Source: Candidatus Zixiibacteriota bacterium
GTDB lineage: Bacteria > Zixibacteria > MSB-5A5 > GN15 > JAAZOE01
Length of the DNA: 64,000 nt
NCBI GenBank assembly: GCA_043819555.1
Contig: JBDREQ010000073.1
Location: forward strand, 192,001-256,000
Reading direction: 5' to 3'
Shown: piece after piece, positions 4,550 through 11,377 of the stretch
Layout: every line of letters begins with the position of its first letter
How positions within the stretch are numbered: position 1 is the stretch's first letter
Notes under the pieces: model-generated
Database searches by the model: none
The model's input: the letters and a program-made list of their open reading frames with translations, nothing else
What the model was told of the DNA's origin: nothing
Program-made: the position numbers and the translations under genes

Positions 4550-4611
4550 TTGGCTTGCCTGAAGCCCAGCCAATATTTAGATTGATTTGTATAAGAGATT
4601 GGTGGTGTAAA

Positions 4612-5934
4612 ATGAATAAGATAAAGAGATTAACCCTGCTAATCATAGCATCTTTGTTGTATCCCGGGATTTCTCTTTCGGATCAAACGGGGTATCGCGG
4701 GTCCGATGAGTATGGTGAGGCTAGATTTGCGATTGATGCCGCAGATTTTTATTCCGGTGAAGATGATAAAAATTTCCTCGAAATTTACTACAAGATATTT
4801 TATGACGCGTTCGGTTATCAAAAATTAGAAAATGGGTACGAGGCTAAATATGAAATTTCGTTTACTGTTACCGGCAATGATAATCATCCAATTGAGGGTA
4901 TTACGAAGAATGGAAAAATAAAAGTCAACAGTTATGCCGAAACCAGACGCTCGGAAGATTTTATCATCAATATGGTTTCGTTTCCATTCGAACCGCAGGA
5001 TATTAAAATTGACGCGTCTTTAACCGATGAATCCGGATCGATTCTGGCTACTATTTCAAAAAAAATACCCAAAAAGTCTTATACCCAAAAATATCCGACA
5101 ATTTCGCGAGTTGAGTTGGCCCATGACATACTCGAATCAACCGATTCATCAAAATTCAATAAAGAGAATATGAGGATTATTCCCAAAGTTATGCGGGTTT
5201 TTGGCGGCGAAGAAGATAGCCTGTTATCGTTTTATCATGAGGTTTATCCGGGAGATAAAAGCGATAAATATACCAAACTGATTATTGGTCTTTACCATCG
5301 CCATAAAGGACTTATGCGAGCTGATACGATTTCCTACGGAGAGATTATTGATGTAAAAAGGGAATTTCAAACCATAAATATCAAGGATATATATCCCGGG
5401 GACTATGAACTGGAATTAAAATTAATCGGGCGTCGAGGCAGAGAGTATGACAAAATAACCGAAGAAATCGAAATGAAATTGACGGGTGAAAGCATGTTTG
5501 TTACAGATTATGAAACGCTGATAGACATGATGAAATACCTGACCAATAATAAAGAGCACAAGAAACTAAAAGACGCCATGACACTGGAGGATCGCCGGCG
5601 CGTTTGGGATGAATTTTGGGCTATCAGGGCATCCGAGGGAAATAGCACGATTAATCCCACCAAAGCAGAGTATTTTCGCCGTGTTCGGCATTCCAATCGG
5701 TATTTCACGTTTATGAATAAAGATGGTTGGAAAACTACTCGGGGCATGGTATATATTACCTACGGTACTCCTGATGAGGTTGAGGATTATCCCTTTGAAT
5801 TGGCTACCAAACCATATCAGATCTGGCATTATTTTCGAAGAAATCCTCCTCGGAACTTTCTTTTTGTCGATGAATGGGGCGATGGGAATTATGAATTGCA
5901 ACCGCCATATGACGGTTTAGGATTTGGGAATTAG
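4612..5934 (+). CDS. GWxTD domain-containing secreted protein
   Basis: Signal-peptide-like N-terminus from ATG 4612; FW...EYFRRV..SN..F...GWKTTRGMVYITYGTPDEVE..YQIWHY..FLFVD motif. Confidence 0.88.
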   Translation: MNKIKRLTLLIIASLLYPGISLSDQTGYRGSDEYGEARFAIDAADFYSGEDDKNFLEIYYKIFYDAFGYQKLENGYEAKYEISFTVTGNDNHPIEGITKNGKIKVNSYAETRRSEDFIINMVSFPFEPQDIKIDASLTDESGSILATISKKIPKKSYTQKYPTISRVELAHDILESTDSSKFNKENMRIIPKVMRVFGGEEDSLLSFYHEVYPGDKSDKYTKLIIGLYHRHKGLMRADTISYGEIIDVKREFQTINIKDIYPGDYELELKLIGRRGREYDKITEEIEMKLTGESMFVTDYETLIDMMKYLTNNKEHKKLKDAMTLEDRRRVWDEFWAIRASEGNSTINPTKAEYFRRVRHSNRYFTFMNKDGWKTTRGMVYITYGTPDEVEDYPFELATKPYQIWHYFRRNPPRNFLFVDEWGDGNYELQPPYDGLGFGN

Positions 5935-5936
5935 TC

Positions 5937-7367
5937 ATGGTACGATTCAATATGATTCTATCCATTGCGATTTTAGCACTGGTAAATATTTCCGGAGCGA
6001 CTGGCAATTCTATGACGTTTATCACTGATTATGCTTCTTTTGCCGATGTGGCGGAAATGCGGCCCTACATTGAAATATATTGCGAGCTAAATCGCGACGA
6101 GTTAGGTTTTATCGGTTCTGATACGAGCGATTATCTATATGCCGGTGTTTATCTCTCGGCGATTGCGTATGATGAATCAGGCGATCCGCAGGATTCTGCG
6201 TCGACCTATTTTCTTAGCCGGGTAAAAAACCGCGAAGAGAGCCAAAAACGAGGGATACAGCTTTTTGATTTATTGGGTCTGCATTTGGCGCCCGGGCGCT
6301 ATCGAATTATATGTTCGGCCATTGATAATGTCTCCAAAAAATCCAGCCAGAATACAATTGTTGCCGAAATTCCGGATTATTTTTTACCGGGCCTGAGATG
6401 CAGTGATCTGCAGGTGGCATTTGAGATACACTCATTTAATGTTGATGATGATTCTCCTGTTAATAAAAGATTAATTAAACAGGACCGGTTAATTATTCCA
6501 AATCCGACCGGTCAATATCAGATCCACCTGAACAAACATATTTGGGTGTATGCCGAGCTCTACGGTCTGTCATTTGAGGGAGAATCCGTTCCTTCCGAAA
6601 ATAAAAAGTTTTTGACAAATTACTCCCTAAAAGACATGAATGGAAATTTAATTCATGATTTCGGCGGGCAGGCCAAGGATAAACCCGGAACTTCAGCTGT
6701 TGTCGTAAACTGTCTGGAACTGCCGTCAATTCCGACAGGGGATTATCATTTGGTTTTTGATGTCACCGATCCGGGCGCCGGTTCAAAAACACTGGCATCC
6801 AAAGCGATTTCAATAATTGCGTCCGAACTGGCGCAAAAGCAATATTCAATTGAAGATATTGAACTGATGAGAAATATAGCGTATTATCATCTTTCGGAGG
6901 CCGAAAAAATCCAGATTGATAAATTATCAATCGAAGGTAAAAGGAATTTTATTCAACAGTTCTGGCGGACACAGGATGATGATCCATCGGACGCGAAAAA
7001 TCCGGTATATGAAGAAGCGGTTCGGAGATTTGTCTATGCCAATGAGATGTTTTCAACGCGAACCGATATCAGGGACGGTTGGACGACCGACCGTGGCCGG
7101 ATTTATATTACTTATGGTCCTTATAATGAATCTGAAACGGTTGAAATGGAGGGCCGCAACTATCCATATCGAAAATGGACCTATTACAATCTGGACGGCC
7201 GCAGAATATTCGTATTTGTCAATGATTTTAAGGCTCAGGTCGGCGATTACCGATTGGTTCATTCGACACATCCAAGGGAAAAATATGATCCCGTTTGGGA
7301 GCAGATTCTGAATGAGAAAGACGATACCAATAGCGATTGGCGTGATACAAGAGACAGTGATTGGTAG
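5937..7367 (+). CDS. GWxTD domain-containing secreted protein
   Basis: Signal peptide; FW..DDDP..NP...RF.YAN..F..GWTTDRGRIYITYGP..W.Y..FVF..YRLVHST motif. Confidence 0.9.
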   Translation: MVRFNMILSIAILALVNISGATGNSMTFITDYASFADVAEMRPYIEIYCELNRDELGFIGSDTSDYLYAGVYLSAIAYDESGDPQDSASTYFLSRVKNREESQKRGIQLFDLLGLHLAPGRYRIICSAIDNVSKKSSQNTIVAEIPDYFLPGLRCSDLQVAFEIHSFNVDDDSPVNKRLIKQDRLIIPNPTGQYQIHLNKHIWVYAELYGLSFEGESVPSENKKFLTNYSLKDMNGNLIHDFGGQAKDKPGTSAVVVNCLELPSIPTGDYHLVFDVTDPGAGSKTLASKAISIIASELAQKQYSIEDIELMRNIAYYHLSEAEKIQIDKLSIEGKRNFIQQFWRTQDDDPSDAKNPVYEEAVRRFVYANEMFSTRTDIRDGWTTDRGRIYITYGPYNESETVEMEGRNYPYRKWTYYNLDGRRIFVFVNDFKAQVGDYRLVHSTHPREKYDPVWEQILNEKDDTNSDWRDTRDSDW

Positions 7368-7400
7368 AATACTTGCACAAAAATATGTTTATGATTTCAG

Positions 7401-7427
7401 GAACCGGCGATAGCGCCGGTTCTTTTT
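7401..7427 (+). terminator. Intrinsic terminator between convergent GWxTD and HesB-like genes
   Basis: GAACCGGCG-ATAG-CGCCGGTTC followed by TTTTT. Confidence 0.8.
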
Positions 7428-7438
7428 ATTTATTCGCT

Positions 7439-7798
7439 TTACTTTTCTGATTCAGATTCGCATCCGGAATCGGTATTACATCCTTTGCAATCATGCCCCG
7501 AGGGTTTCTCCTTAGTCGCAACAACAAATCCCCTGCGATCAGGTCCTTCATCTATGAAGTCAATGGCGACGCCACCAAATTGCTGCAACTGCTCCACTAA
7601 AGCAGGATGCATGAATACATCTATGCCGTTGGAATTGAAGTTGCTCAGACTATCTTCGGGCTCATCCAGAGCCAAACCCAAAACGGGTCCGCTTCAACCA
7701 TACCCCATAAAATTGACAAATAAACTTTTCCCCTTGGCGTTATCGGACTGCAAAACTTTATTAAGCTCCACAGATGCAAGTTCTGAGATGGTTACCAT
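7439..7798 (-). CDS. HesB/IscA-like (A-type Fe-S carrier-like) protein, probable selenoprotein (UGA at codon 35), 119 aa
   Basis: Manual translation from ATG 7798 (SD GGGAGA): MVTISELASVELNKVLQSDNAKGKSLFVNFMGYG-TGA(7696-7694)-SGPVLGLALDEPEDS... continuing in frame into ORF 7439..7681; GxGU(S/G)GPxLGLALDE is the HesB-like selenoprotein motif; Cys-rich tail CKGC..C. Confidence 0.88.
7655..7676 (-). promoter_or_regulatory. Candidate bacterial SECIS hairpin of the HesB-like gene
   Basis: mRNA UUU-GGCUC-UGGAU-GAGCC-C-GAA; core stem starts 21 nt and G-containing loop 26 nt after the UGA. Confidence 0.6.
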
Positions 7799-7869
7799 CC
7801 AATTCTCCCGGTTCTATGTTGGCCTTCCTTCGGCCAATTGCTGGTCGTCATTTATATTTTTAGAAACGC

Positions 7870-7898
7870 ATTATAGTATATTTTTGTGCCTGCGTAAA
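7870..7898 (-). promoter_or_regulatory. Sigma70-type promoter for the HesB-like gene
   Basis: Minus strand TTTACG-17 bp-TATAAT. Confidence 0.55.
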
Positions 7899-7902
7899 GA
7901 AC

Positions 7903-7930
7903 AAAAAAAAACCGCCGAAAAAATCGGCGG
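7903..7930 (-). terminator. Intrinsic terminator after the DUF1573-like gene
   Basis: Minus strand CCGCCGA-TTTTT-TCGGCGG followed by T9. Confidence 0.85.
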
Positions 7931-7954
7931 CTGTAATTTGCACTCGGAATTTAT

Positions 7955-8695
7955 TTACTGTGAACCGACACTGCCGGCTTGAGCTTTTTTGCCTCCAATT
8001 AATCGCCTGATTATAGGAACCGAAAAACGCGTCTTGGTCGGATCATTAAGCTCCAATGTGATTGATTTTTCAAAACTCTGATTGAGGTGATCCTCATTGA
8101 CCTTGATTTTGCATTCAGCCGTTTCGCCGGCTTTTACTTCATCCGGCAAATAAATTTGTAAATAACCGTAAGGTTCACTTACGATTTTCAATTCCAAATC
8201 TTCGTCTGAAACATTAGTTACCGTAAATTTGGCCTCATCAACCTCGACTTCACCGGCTCGTGAAACGTAAATCCGATATGGCTTAAACACTACCGGATAA
8301 GTTGAGTCAGGTTGCCGTACAGAATGAACGCTAATGGTAACCCGCTTGGTGGGCGGGCCTTCATTAGTAGAAATGGCGGGGCGTTTACTCGCCGGCCCAA
8401 CTTTTTGACCGGTTGAATAAATAATTTCCAATTCAGTGCTGTCGCCGACAGCAAGCTCCTTCTTTGTTAACGGAGCCTTGGTGCAGCCTCAGCCAGGCTT
8501 TACGTCTAATATCTTCAGCGAATCATCCCCAACCGATTTAATCCAGAATACATGGGATACTTTGCAATCCTGGGGCACAAACCCAAAATCAAATGAGGTT
8601 TCGGGAAGAAGCATTTTCGGCACTGCCATTGCCTGTGAAGATATGAGAGCCATTAAGAGGATTGTTAAGAAAACACTAATCAATAATTTGCGCAT
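7955..8695 (-). CDS. Secreted DUF1573-like (Ig-fold) protein with in-frame UGA at codon 69, probable selenoprotein, 246 aa
   Basis: ORF 8489..8695 (SD GGAGGA, signal peptide, FDFG..V..F.IK..GDDSLKILDVKPG) ends at TGA 8491-8489; the same frame continues GCTKAPLTKKELAVGDSTELEIIY.. into ORF 7955..8431; PG-U-GCT matches the DUF1573 xxCGCT motif. Confidence 0.8.
8438..8478 (-). promoter_or_regulatory. Candidate SECIS-like hairpins 3' of the UGA in the DUF1573-like gene
   Basis: mRNA AGGCUCC-GUUAACAAAGAA-GGAGCUU (+11..+36) followed directly by GCUGUC-GGC-GACAGC (+37..+51). Confidence 0.4.
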
Positions 8696-8788
8696 TTATC
8701 CTCCATTTTAGTATATAAGTCATCAGCCTATTATATTGTCATCGGCGCGATAAGTTTCAAATTTATCAATTCGAACCAATTTGTTAAA

Positions 8789-8816
8789 AATCTAATACTT
8801 TTCAACCGTATGTCAA
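8789..8816 (-). promoter_or_regulatory. Possible sigma70 promoter for the DUF1573-like gene
   Basis: Minus strand TTGACA-16 bp-TAGATT. Confidence 0.4.
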
Positions 8817-9059
8817 GGAATATACGAATTCATTTTGGAATTCGTTTTATACATATTCCATTATTTTATGTCTCTATATATAGACGCTTATAACTTAATC
8901 TTGGTTACGCTCAAAATTCACTCATACTCCAATATAGTTGTAATTATTCGACTCGTTTCCAGCAATAATCTAATCCCTTGAAATCGTATAATTTAAAATT
9001 CCGTATCACAAATTAATATCACATTCTGTACTTTTTTCAAATATCTTCCGATTATATGA

Positions 9060-9088
9060 TTGACAACTGCACGAATGGGCAGTATAAG
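9060..9088 (+). promoter_or_regulatory. lexA promoter with an SOS-box-like palindrome in the spacer
   Basis: TTGACA-17 bp-TATAAG; the spacer holds ACTGC-ACGAATGG-GCAGT (9066-9083). Confidence 0.75.
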
Positions 9089-9122
9089 GTAGTAGAATAA
9101 AGCCTGTTTTTCAGGAGGATAA

Positions 9123-9743
9123 ATGGCTGACAAAAACAAACTAACCAGACGGCAACAACAGATACTTGATTTTATCGAGGAAATGGTCAATATCTCCGGT
9201 TTGCCGCCAACTATCAGAGAAATTGGTCTCAAGTTCAGTATTGCCTCAACCAATGGCGTCAGATCGATCCTGAGCGCTCTTGAAAAGAAAGGATATATAC
9301 ATCGCCAAAAATTGGTCTCGCGCGGAATCGAGCTGATCAAGCGATCGCCGATTATGTTTAATCGCATCCCAATTGTCGGCTCAGTTCCGGCCGGATTGCC
9401 AATAACAGCTATTGAGAATCGCGAGGGGGAAATGGCCGTTGATACAGCATTTTTACCCAACGATAAGGTGTTTTGTCTGAGAGTTAAAGGTGAGTCAATG
9501 ATAAACGCCGGTATATTTGATGGAGATTTTGTACTGGTCGATAAAAATATCGATCCCCTGAAAGGCGATATTGTTGTGGCCGTTATCGGCGAAGAAGCAA
9601 CGGTCAAAAAGTTCTATCCGGAGAAAAGACGTGTCCGCCTTGAGCCTCAAAACGAAGCTTTTGGACCAATTATTGTCGATAGTAATACTCCGGGATTCTA
9701 TATCGCCGGCCGGGTTGTGGGATTGATGAGACGCATGAGATAA
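9123..9743 (+). CDS. lexA: SOS repressor LexA
   Basis: LT.RQ..IL..I, PPTIREIG HTH; VPAG cleavage site; GESM catalytic Ser; ATVKK catalytic Lys. Confidence 0.97.
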   Translation: MADKNKLTRRQQQILDFIEEMVNISGLPPTIREIGLKFSIASTNGVRSILSALEKKGYIHRQKLVSRGIELIKRSPIMFNRIPIVGSVPAGLPITAIENREGEMAVDTAFLPNDKVFCLRVKGESMINAGIFDGDFVLVDKNIDPLKGDIVVAVIGEEATVKKFYPEKRRVRLEPQNEAFGPIIVDSNTPGFYIAGRVVGLMRRMR

Positions 9744-9916
9744 TACAGACATTTTTAGTTCTGTAGCGTTTTTTAAGATAGTTTTTCATTTTCATATTTG
9801 CACTTTTGCAGAATTAAGGCAGTCCAGATGTATAAATATGCCGTGCTTGTAATGCTATTATTAATAATTAGTAAGAGCTTGTTATTAAACTATTACTTTA
9901 TGTGAAGCGAGGGGAT

Positions 9917-10165
9917 ATGTATCAGGATATGGACGAACCTATTGAGGTCGTTGTGTTATTTCAGAACAACAAAATGAAGCCTTCCCGGTTTCGCTGGAAC
10001 GGTACCGTGTACAAAATTGCTGAAGTAACCGGCGACTGGAAAACTGACGTAGGGGCGTATCGTATTCGCCATTTCGCGGTGGTTGATTCGTCGTCTAATT
10101 TTTATCAATTGTCGTACGACGAACGCAAAACCAGTTGGGTTATCAGTAAAATCTGGGTGGAATAG
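9917..10165 (+). CDS. Small DUF6504-like protein (resembles the ImuB C-terminal domain)
   Basis: SD GAGGGG before ATG 9917; DEPIEV...PSRFRWNG..YKI.EV...W...RHF.V..Y.L.YD...W pattern; directly abuts dinB. Confidence 0.65.
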   Translation: MYQDMDEPIEVVVLFQNNKMKPSRFRWNGTVYKIAEVTGDWKTDVGAYRIRHFAVVDSSSNFYQLSYDERKTSWVISKIWVE

Positions 10166-11377
10166 ATGATAGATTATTCTCCTGTCATAGCTCATGTTGA
10201 CATGGACGCGTTTTTCGCAGCTGTGGAAACCCGGAACAATCCCCACTTAAAGGGAAAACCGGTTATTGTCGGTGGCGGAATCGGGCCGCGGGGAGTTGTC
10301 TCAACCTGCTCTTATGAAGCCCGGAAGTATGGTGTCCATTCAGGGATGTCGGCCGTGCAGGCAAGAAAACTATGTCCGAAGGGAATTTTTATATCCGCCG
10401 GATTGAGAGGATATGTGTACGCTTCCGCATATCTCCAGAAAATATATGAATCATATTCGCCTCTGGTGCAGCCAATCAGCATTGACGAAGCTTTCCTCGA
10501 TATAACCGGAGCAGATCGTTTGTACGATGGACCGGTGGAATTGATCCAGAAAATGAAAAATGAAATCTGGGAGAAAATGAAATTGACCTGCTCGGTTGGT
10601 ATTGCCCCGACAAGATATCTGGCCAAACTATCATCGGGAATAAATAAACCGAACGGCTTGACCGTTATGAACCAGGAGAAATTTAAAGAAGTATTTTATT
10701 CCAAACCGGTGGATGCATTGTGGGGCATCGGCGAAAGCACCAAAAAAACACTGGCCCGGGAAAATATCCATACTGTTGCTGACCTGGCCGCGACTGATTC
10801 GAAAATTCTACATAGAATATTCGGTAAGAACGGAGACACCTTATCAATTATGTCCCGTGGAACAGATAACGGTCAAGTTATGCGCTATGAAGATGTGCCT
10901 CACGATAAATCAATGTCGCATGAGACGACTCTTAGAGTAGATATTTATGACCCAACAATTATCAAGGCAACGCTATTGTGGCTTTCGGATAAAGTCGCTC
11001 GAAGGATGCGACGACACGGCTATGTTGGATGTACGATCTCGGTTAAAATTCGTTCATCAGATTTTACTACGATTACAAGAGCCCACACTCTAAGAAGACC
11101 GACTGACCGGTGTGATATTATTTTTCATAATGCCGTAAAGCTGATTCCCAAAGAATACGGGATGAAATATAAAGTACGATTATTGGGGGTACGCGCATCT
11201 CAATTAAAAAAAATCAAATCTTCATCAGGAAATGATATTAATTCCGATTTGATGTCTCAATATGAACTGATTCTCGATAACCGTGAAGAAAAATACAAGA
11301 AACTGACAGGAGCGATGGATAATATCCGCGATAAATACGGTGAGCATATAATTAAGCTGGCCGGTTCGATGCGTTGA
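10166..11377 (+). CDS. dinB: DNA polymerase IV (Y family)
   Basis: HVDMDAFFA, SYEARKYGV.SGM, SIDEAFLD catalytic motif, LWGIG, little-finger domain. Confidence 0.95.
   Translation: MIDYSPVIAHVDMDAFFAAVETRNNPHLKGKPVIVGGGIGPRGVVSTCSYEARKYGVHSGMSAVQARKLCPKGIFISAGLRGYVYASAYLQKIYESYSPLVQPISIDEAFLDITGADRLYDGPVELIQKMKNEIWEKMKLTCSVGIAPTRYLAKLSSGINKPNGLTVMNQEKFKEVFYSKPVDALWGIGESTKKTLARENIHTVADLAATDSKILHRIFGKNGDTLSIMSRGTDNGQVMRYEDVPHDKSMSHETTLRVDIYDPTIIKATLLWLSDKVARRMRRHGYVGCTISVKIRSSDFTTITRAHTLRRPTDRCDIIFHNAVKLIPKEYGMKYKVRLLGVRASQLKKIKSSSGNDINSDLMSQYELILDNREEKYKKLTGAMDNIRDKYGEHIIKLAGSMR

Follow-up and report, generated by a model that had tools for sequence, protein, structure and literature searches.

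Proteins of the DUF1573 family that carry the motif UGC were predicted to be selenoproteins, under the name OS_HP2, by Zhang and Gladyshev in 2007 (PMC1976440). In the accessible parts of later sources, OS_HP2 is tabulated as pfam07610 with the motif UxC in 2008 (PMC2398784), and reviews from 2022 (PMC9312934) and 2026 (PMC13188914) include DUF1573, with the motif UGC, among their tabulated selenoproteins and trace it to the 2007 paper. [quoted passage not shown] The E. coli fdhF-type stem-loop begins 11 nt from the UGA, according to the portion available of PMC8659212.

The window, i.e., the 64,000-nucleotide stretch of a Candidatus Zixiibacteriota genome analyzed here (contig JBDREQ010000073.1, positions 192,001–256,000), contains a gene that belongs with these proteins and comprises the following features, listed with their strand:

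7955–8695 (−): DUF1573/OS_HP2-like selenoprotein gene, 246 aa, from translation, profiles and structure model
8624–8695 (−): putative signal peptide, codons 1–24, by inspection; helix 2–20 in the model
8489–8491 (−): in-frame TGA, assigned to Sec69 from sequence and codon alignment
8700–8704 (−): Shine–Dalgarno GGAGG in the sequence, 4 nt before the ATG
8789–8816 (−): sigma-70-like promoter match upstream of the gene (TTGACA, 16 nt, TAGATT), a consensus match only
Product, by residue: signal peptide, ~1–24; Ig-like domain 1 with U69-G-C71, ~25–128; Ig-like domain 2, ~133–232

On translation, 8695–7955 (−) is one frame of 246 codons with a single internal stop, the TGA at 8491–8489, which is codon 69 and lies in the context V-K-P-G-(TGA)-G-C-T-K. 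The 68-aa and 158-aa ORFs of the ORF list are the two pieces of this frame. The TTG at 8431, from which the downstream piece would start, lies 7 nt beyond a conserved RNA hairpin and, as had been stated earlier and is confirmed in the sequence, has no evident Shine–Dalgarno. The N-terminus (MRK, a hydrophobic stretch, and A-M-A at 22–24) looks, by inspection, like a putative cleavable signal peptide. The preliminary description of this hidden frame, with its TGA, Shine–Dalgarno and signal peptide, is accurate in sequence and translation. Just upstream of the promoter-like match at 8816–8789, an 8-bp inverted repeat at 8845–8824 is a possible regulator site.

The read-through protein matches PF07610 (DUF1573) in two stretches with 88.9 bits (cut-off 26.1) and also matches PF22544, the HYDIN/VesB Ig-like family. 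On NF041425, the OS_HP2 model, it covers model positions 1–93 of 98 with 75.6 bits; as this lies below the cut-off of 100 bits, we place it on a sister branch and not in the modelled subfamily. That cut-off is reached by none of eight Zixibacteria database homologues and by none of 46 further genomes. The locus is a genuine Sec gene, but its family has been predicted since 2007 and is not new: the earlier label 'candidate new selenoprotein' has to be withdrawn as to novelty, the family being already present in selenoprotein tables (OS_HP2, UGC/UxC) and in NCBIfam (NF041425), whereas the accompanying statement that the family is not experimentally characterized as a selenoprotein is uncontradicted in the literature examined.

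Among the 120 listed database homologues, position 69 is Cys in 83 and U in none, and 32 proteins start after it; the five that have Trp are probably gene calls made under a code with UGA as Trp. The named homologues are from Zixibacteria, with the exception of one labelled 'FCB group'. Elsewhere in the same genome there are three Cys-type or other DUF1573 matches, G000:C73:71399-72109 (+), C73:181593-182177 (−) and C28:1189-1434 (−), the first of which has 37% identity, the motif S-C-G-C-T and an ECF sigma and anti-sigma-like pair in its vicinity.

The genome (3.35 Mb, 97% complete) encodes the full Sec machinery by which the preliminary description proposed to check its reading: tRNA-Sec (selC; 74.3 bits, cut-off 47), SelA (401 bits, above the curated cut-off), SelB (322 bits, cut-off 242) and SelD, which is above its curated cut-off and carries an in-frame TGA of its own. 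Homologues of the DUF1573 protein occur in all 60 relatives searched. In 147 copies aligned over the motif, taken from 73 loci picked largely for a listed TGA and with one match missing the site dropped, codon 69 is TGA in 69, TGC or TGT in 74, AAC in three and GGT in one, which is the alternation between TGA and Cys codons that had been proposed as a check in relatives. All 69 TGA copies lack any other stop within the aligned stretch. Past the UGA, comparison with a same-genus copy gives a dN of 0.034 and a dS of 0.89 (dN/dS ~0.04), and in the 3′ half pS is 0.71–0.88 against eight same-family copies, so that synonymous sites are near saturation. Relaxed selection in the 3′ half, named at the outset as a possible refutation, is ruled out by this purifying selection.

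These data bear directly on the alternative that the locus is a pseudogene, a sequencing error, two separate genes, or the product of a genome-wide recoding of UGA as Trp, Gly or Cys. Gene callers do treat it in this way, with 32 of the 120 listed homologues starting after position 69 and five having W there. However, chance or sequencing error is rejected because TGA recurs at this codon in 69 of the 147 copies, each with one stop, and is shared by 217/285 of the phylum's genomes; dN/dS past the UGA is ~0.04; and genome-wide recoding is contradicted by TGA terminating 369 of 1459 long frames of the genome and by the tRNA set, in which the sole UCA-anticodon tRNA found is tRNA-Sec (the Trp tRNA has CCA, the Cys tRNA GCA). 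We regard this whole group of explanations as hardly credible. The original proposal, in which UGA encodes selenocysteine in place of the first Cys in the CGC motif of a two-domain, exported DUF1573 protein, is supported by every computational check that it named, and from these comparisons UGA69 is almost certainly decoded as Sec by the SelB and Sec-tRNA of the genome. It overlooked the unusual SECIS layout and the neighbouring HesB-like selenoprotein, both described below.

Downstream of the UGA, the coding sequence can form two consecutive hairpins:

8453–8478 (−): hairpin 1, +11 to +36 after the UGA; variable sequence with covarying pairs; proposed spacer
8438–8452 (−): hairpin 2, +37 to +51, GCUGUC-GGC-GACAGC, loop at +43 to +45 (8446–8444); proposed SelB-binding SECIS core

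Hairpin 2 has the form GCUGUC-GGU-GACAGC in TGA copies, with 6 bp, and the loop GGC in the window. All six pairs are present in 65 of the 69 TGA copies (the other four lack a perfect hairpin 2) but in only one of the 74 Cys copies, and in one of 23 when Cys copies are restricted to those with at least 40% identity; a Sec-specific RNA element is therefore present. Synonymous positions within it are near fixed, e.g., +39 is T in 66/67 TGA versus 4/23 Cys copies, and +45 is T in 55/69 versus 6/27. The GG of the loop is forced by an invariant Gly. Hairpin 2 agrees with the consensus SECIS in its 6-bp stem, 3-nt loop (GGC) and energy (−8.4 kcal/mol over +36 to +52), but fails it in spacing, with the loop 42 nt from the UGA in the window and in 65 matching copies, against 16–37 nt in the model. 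Matched exactly, the stretch running from the UGA through hairpin 2 is present in 217/285 of the phylum's genomes, and its Cys-codon version in six of 285.

Hairpin 1 has a mean energy of −10.0 kcal/mol in TGA copies versus −4.2 kcal/mol in the 23 close Cys copies. Under synonymous recoding, each hairpin reaches p ≤ 0.05 in 67 of the 69 TGA copies, versus 5/23 (hairpin 1) and 3/23 (hairpin 2) of the Cys copies; for the gene in the window, 22 of 3000 recodings matched hairpin 1 and one of 3000 matched hairpin 2. Over the two helices, 38 alignment cells are changed on both sides of a pair, a value reached in none of 500 shuffles and above that of slid controls, though this statistic is inflated by kinship among the copies. 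Hairpin 1 accounts for 36 of these cells, and covariation of hairpin 2 in the main group is nearly nil (two two-sided cells). RNAalifold, run on the 69 TGA copies, missed hairpin 1 and found only three pairs of hairpin 2; it gave no clean two-hairpin consensus, nor a clean version of the single long stem discussed below. In metagenomes, among at least 126 matches, 126 of 126 have the same total length although the gap was allowed to vary by 6 nt, and hairpin 1 is at or below −5 kcal/mol in 123 of the 126 among those listed; as hairpin 2 and five hairpin 1 bases were already prescribed by the search pattern, this is a partial test only. A search of Rfam over 7300–9200 gave eight matches, all below gathering scores and none on the SECIS, and no account of a bacterial SECIS with two hairpins turned up in the literature searched, which comprised few subscription journals and no supplements.

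Codon preferences are also seen around the UGA itself. In the 6 nt upstream of it (8497–8492), the Pro codon is CCT in 44/68 Sec versus 0/28 Cys copies and the Gly codon is GGC in 55/69 versus 8/28, and the codon of Cys71 is TGC in 66/69 versus 17/28. A short hairpin may span the UGA, although no covariation is seen between −7 and +3.

Other Sec genes of the genome have loops within the 16–37 rule: selD at +21 and hesB at +26. For an AhpD-like and a thioredoxin-like gene, each a single copy from an incomplete list of the selenoproteins of the genome, the loops lie at +19 and ~+22, respectively. In most of 28 TGA copies of selD, the SECIS is a 7-bp stem at +14 to +20 with a GGU, GUU or GGC loop at +21, and hairpin 2 resembles this element shifted 22 nt downstream. 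The AhpD/CMD-like protein (94 aa; G000:C63:88278 (−), L123:638-920) has the motif C-Y-P-U (CxxU) and a GUC-loop hairpin at +19; it is over the cut-off for PF02627 and under the cut-offs of the seleno-family models. The other is an exported thioredoxin-like and TPR-like protein with the motif D-D-U-E-Y-C (UxxC; G000:C31:90246 (+), L122:588-1776), which has weak Pfam matches only and no NCBIfam family.

We propose that the insertion signal of the DUF1573 gene would be a two-hairpin, or 'spacer-hairpin', SECIS. SelB would bind hairpin 2, whose short stem and G-G/U loop resemble those of the selD SECIS of the lineage but lie ~22 nt further out, and hairpin 1 would fold away the intervening mRNA. 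With the gap folded out by hairpin 1, hairpin 2 would lie ~12 unpaired nt from the UGA, as in a standard SECIS. That the gene is a Sec gene and that its two-hairpin signal is functional are, taken jointly, highly likely from the comparative data; the specific assignment of hairpin 2 as the SelB site and of hairpin 1 as the spacer we consider probable.

Two other readings of the same RNA have to be weighed against this assignment. The signal could be an ordinary SECIS in which hairpin 1 is the SelB site and hairpin 2 an accessory element for pausing or stability. Hairpin 1 starts at +11, where the upper stem of the E. coli element starts in the part of PMC8659212 available, and its loop formally passes the standard model (3–9 nt, G in the first two places) in 47 of the 69 copies, yet the window itself has a 12-nt loop, GG or GU occurs in only 21 of the 69 loops, and a G at +21/+22 is not enriched with Sec (57/69 Sec versus 25/28 Cys copies). 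The invariance in sequence that usually marks a site of protein binding sits instead in hairpin 2, and in the group of copies with the loop at +54, described below, it shifts along with hairpin 2. On these grounds SelB binding at hairpin 1 is unlikely. The remaining reading is one long stem, with +2 to +9 paired to +43 to +51 and enclosing hairpin 1, like the lower and upper stems of E. coli. It is the minimum-energy fold of several free RNAs, with a probability above 0.5 in 14 of the 69 copies, and would account for the U at +45 and the C at +6. Against it, no pair of the long stem is changed on both sides, the pairs +3/+50 and +9/+43 are broken in 33/68 and 23/68 copies, respectively, and the invariant strand +37 to +42 is left unexplained; when the first 12 nt are kept single-stranded, as under the ribosome, the long stem is excluded by construction and the mean probability of hairpin 2 is 0.87. 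As the insertion signal it is very improbable, and it may represent a pre-translation state.

The proposed spacer role of hairpin 1 predicts that the linker is structured where the core hairpin is far from the UGA and open where it is near. In a sample of 46 of the 68 genomes without the exact pattern, mostly at least 90% complete, SelA is present in 46/46, and many have TGA-bearing DUF1573 genes. The 45 TGA copies from 58 loci of such genomes fall into four layouts, in groups defined by the core motif, with three copies unclassed that by eye are like the four. In the +43 layout (11 copies), the linker hairpin has an energy of −9.4 kcal/mol, and 8/11 have a core pair with a compensated change from G-C to A-U. 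The +41 layout (six copies) uses another stem sequence, with a linker of −7.4 kcal/mol; the +54 layout (13 copies) has a longer linker hairpin of −15.1 kcal/mol; and the +29/+32 layout (12 copies) has a mostly open linker of −1.3 kcal/mol. With a stable linker hairpin counted as zero length, the mean unpaired distances from UGA to core in the +43, +41, +54 and +29/+32 layouts are 12, 13, 15 and 20.5 nt, versus linear distances of 36, 34, 47 and 23 nt, and the main group has an unpaired distance of 12 nt (range 10–19, n = 65). The layouts agree with the prediction; they come from a handful of related clades and are not independent samples. In the +54 group, which was defined by its core motif, 14 nt are invariant in 13/13 copies and the invariance moves with the core hairpin, and covariation of hairpin 1 is not above shuffles (120/500 for two-sided cells). 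Recoding is passed by the linker in 3/6 and the core in 1/6 copies of the +41 group, and in the +29 group by the core in 0/12, with a weak linker hairpin in 3/12. From these alignments we lean, by a little, towards a distinct bacterial SECIS class in which a SelB-binding hairpin would lie 41–53 nt from the UGA, the length of the spacer hairpin would track that distance, and the core would be kept ~10–19 unpaired nt from the codon.

The genes are often arranged in tandem arrays of one to four paralogues. On a tree of 140 of the 147 rows, built with a quick method and midpoint-rooted, the Sec/Cys label switches 18 times, at least eight of them forced by well-supported branches. On this tree, Cys copies often sit next to the Sec copy from their own genome, and they are without hairpin 2. 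The alignment and tree suggest repeated duplication with loss of Sec; the direction from Sec to Cys is suggested only, because the tree is midpoint-rooted and has no clade test. One copy (L338) has the TGA followed by G-V, with the second Cys missing, and another (L083), in a record titled Ignavibacteria, has the same UGA and two-hairpin layout, for which transfer or a binning error is possible.

The neighbours of the gene in the window are as follows:

4555–7367 (+): two GWxTD-domain genes
7439–7798 (−): HesB/IscA-like selenoprotein, 119 aa, G-Y-G-U35-S-G-P, TGA at 7696–7694
7659–7673 (−): SECIS for the hesB-like gene, GGCUC-UGGAU-GAGCC, with the loop at +26, within the range published
7870–7898 (−): sigma-70-like promoter match (10/12) ahead of the hesB-like gene, weak, with four such matches found versus 5.1 expected from shuffled sequence
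7910–7932 (−): intrinsic terminator-like hairpin with a U tail, between the two selenoprotein genes, a consensus match only
9123–11377 (+): lexA, DUF6504 and Y-family polymerase (dinB-like) genes, divergent from the DUF1573 gene

The HesB-like gene is a further Sec gene, with a UxGP motif, a conserved UGA (kept in 30 of 33 aligned copies) and a SECIS; the ORF calls contain only an 80-aa C-terminal piece of it, and the protein ends in a Cys-rich tail. It is under the curated cut-offs of both TIGR01911 (34.2 bits, cut-off 66.35) and NF038090 (58.5 bits, cut-off 85). In one relative (L073, G050), a HesB-like match is listed with two in-frame TGA codons. The hesB-like gene adjoins the DUF1573 gene only in the family of the window (12/13 relatives; 14 of 71 loci). 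An operon of the two selenoprotein genes was considered and is doubtful, since a terminator-like hairpin separates them and the adjacency is limited to one family.

Across 71 loci, the recurring neighbours are GWxTD proteins, an M20 peptidase, an ABC transporter, DUF3187, lexA (adjacent in 9/71) and hesB. A GWxTD gene lies downstream of the DUF1573 array in 50 of the 71 loci, in four families, and is convergent in 50/50; the recurring neighbours other than hesB and GWxTD are divergent. Besides hesB, no co-transcribed partner was found in the 71 loci, and the neighbours give no pointer to function. A search for the term GWxTD found no paper in the literature searched, which included few subscription journals.

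In the AlphaFold2 model, built with 32 sequences (pLDDT 91), the protein consists of a signal helix and two β-sandwiches, and residues 67–71 lie in the loop that follows the strand 60–66. Across the 32 aligned sequences, in which Sec is written as C, neither position 69 nor position 71 varies. The model is all-β, with two Ig-like sandwiches and no thioredoxin fold, and its best structural matches are ASH/PapD-like domains (Z 13.6, rmsd 2.0, 102 residues). A PDB sequence search with the alignment gave no matches, the ESM Atlas returned only DUF1573/ASH clusters, and domain 1 folded without an alignment has a pLDDT of 43.

After cleavage by signal peptidase, the protein would reside in the periplasm and expose Sec-Gly-Cys on a loop at the surface of an ASH/PapD-like Ig domain. 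There the motif would cycle between selenenyl-sulfide and selenol/thiol and act as a redox or folding helper for exported proteins; this is the weakest step of the proposed mechanism, and from the model we offer it tentatively. Two-ligand motifs of the CxC type suit linear binding of Cu(I) or Hg(II), and the loop could serve an exported metallochaperone as its soft-metal site instead of catalysing redox reactions. The motif fits that reading on general grounds, as does the absence of a thioredoxin fold from the model, but no copper or mercury gene is among the recurring neighbours of the 71 loci (flanks 0.5–3 kb), and we hold a metal-carrying role to be doubtful. A redox or folding helper is the more likely of the two inferred roles.

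At the protein level, the result corrects an annotation, since these genes are truncated at the UGA in databases (among the 120 listed homologues, 32 are C-terminal fragments and none has U), and an exported Sec-x-Cys protein with an Ig fold turns out to be nearly universal in an uncultured phylum (exact pattern in 217/285 genomes). The RNA finding matters more than the protein finding. If a spacer hairpin brings a distant SelB site into reach, the 16–37 nt rule for predicting bacterial selenoproteins would be incomplete; the rule would describe a physical and not a linear distance, and standard SECIS searches would miss such genes. The hairpin, whose sequence is constrained, could then be moved a dozen or more codons from the Sec, which bears on Sec engineering, in which the choice of residues just behind the codon is normally limited by the SECIS. 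The +29, +41/+43 and +54 layouts form a ready-made natural series of three that bears on spacing.

In comparison with known systems, the protein has the fold of the ASH/PapD-like Ig domains of HYDIN, CEP192, the VesB C-terminal domain and MSP (Z 10–13.6, rmsd ~2 over ~100 residues). P. gingivalis 2qsv, a two-domain bacterial protein of unknown function, aligns over 194 residues (Z 10.2, rmsd 12). Identity to these domains and to 2qsv is 7–19%, and the shared fold gives no function. The neighbouring HesB-like protein shares U-S-G-P and a SECIS at standard distance with IscA_HesB_Se (TIGR01911, NF038090; UxGP), but differs in falling under both cut-offs and in its Cys-rich C-terminal tail. With the OS_HP2/DUF1573 family, the gene shares the Pfam domain, U-G-C with Sec at the first Cys, and common Cys homologues. 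Unlike the OS_HP2 entries, it encodes two Ig domains after a signal peptide, occurs in tandem arrays of Sec and Cys paralogues, is near-core in Zixibacteria and lies below the NF041425 cut-off; the published tables, in their accessible parts, carry no detail of lineage, location or SECIS. Finally, like the consensus bacterial SECIS, hairpin 2 belongs to the coding region 3′ of the UGA and has a 6-bp stem and a 3-nt loop of G-G followed by U or C, whereas its loop lies 42 nt away (53 nt in another clade), with a covarying hairpin in the gap.
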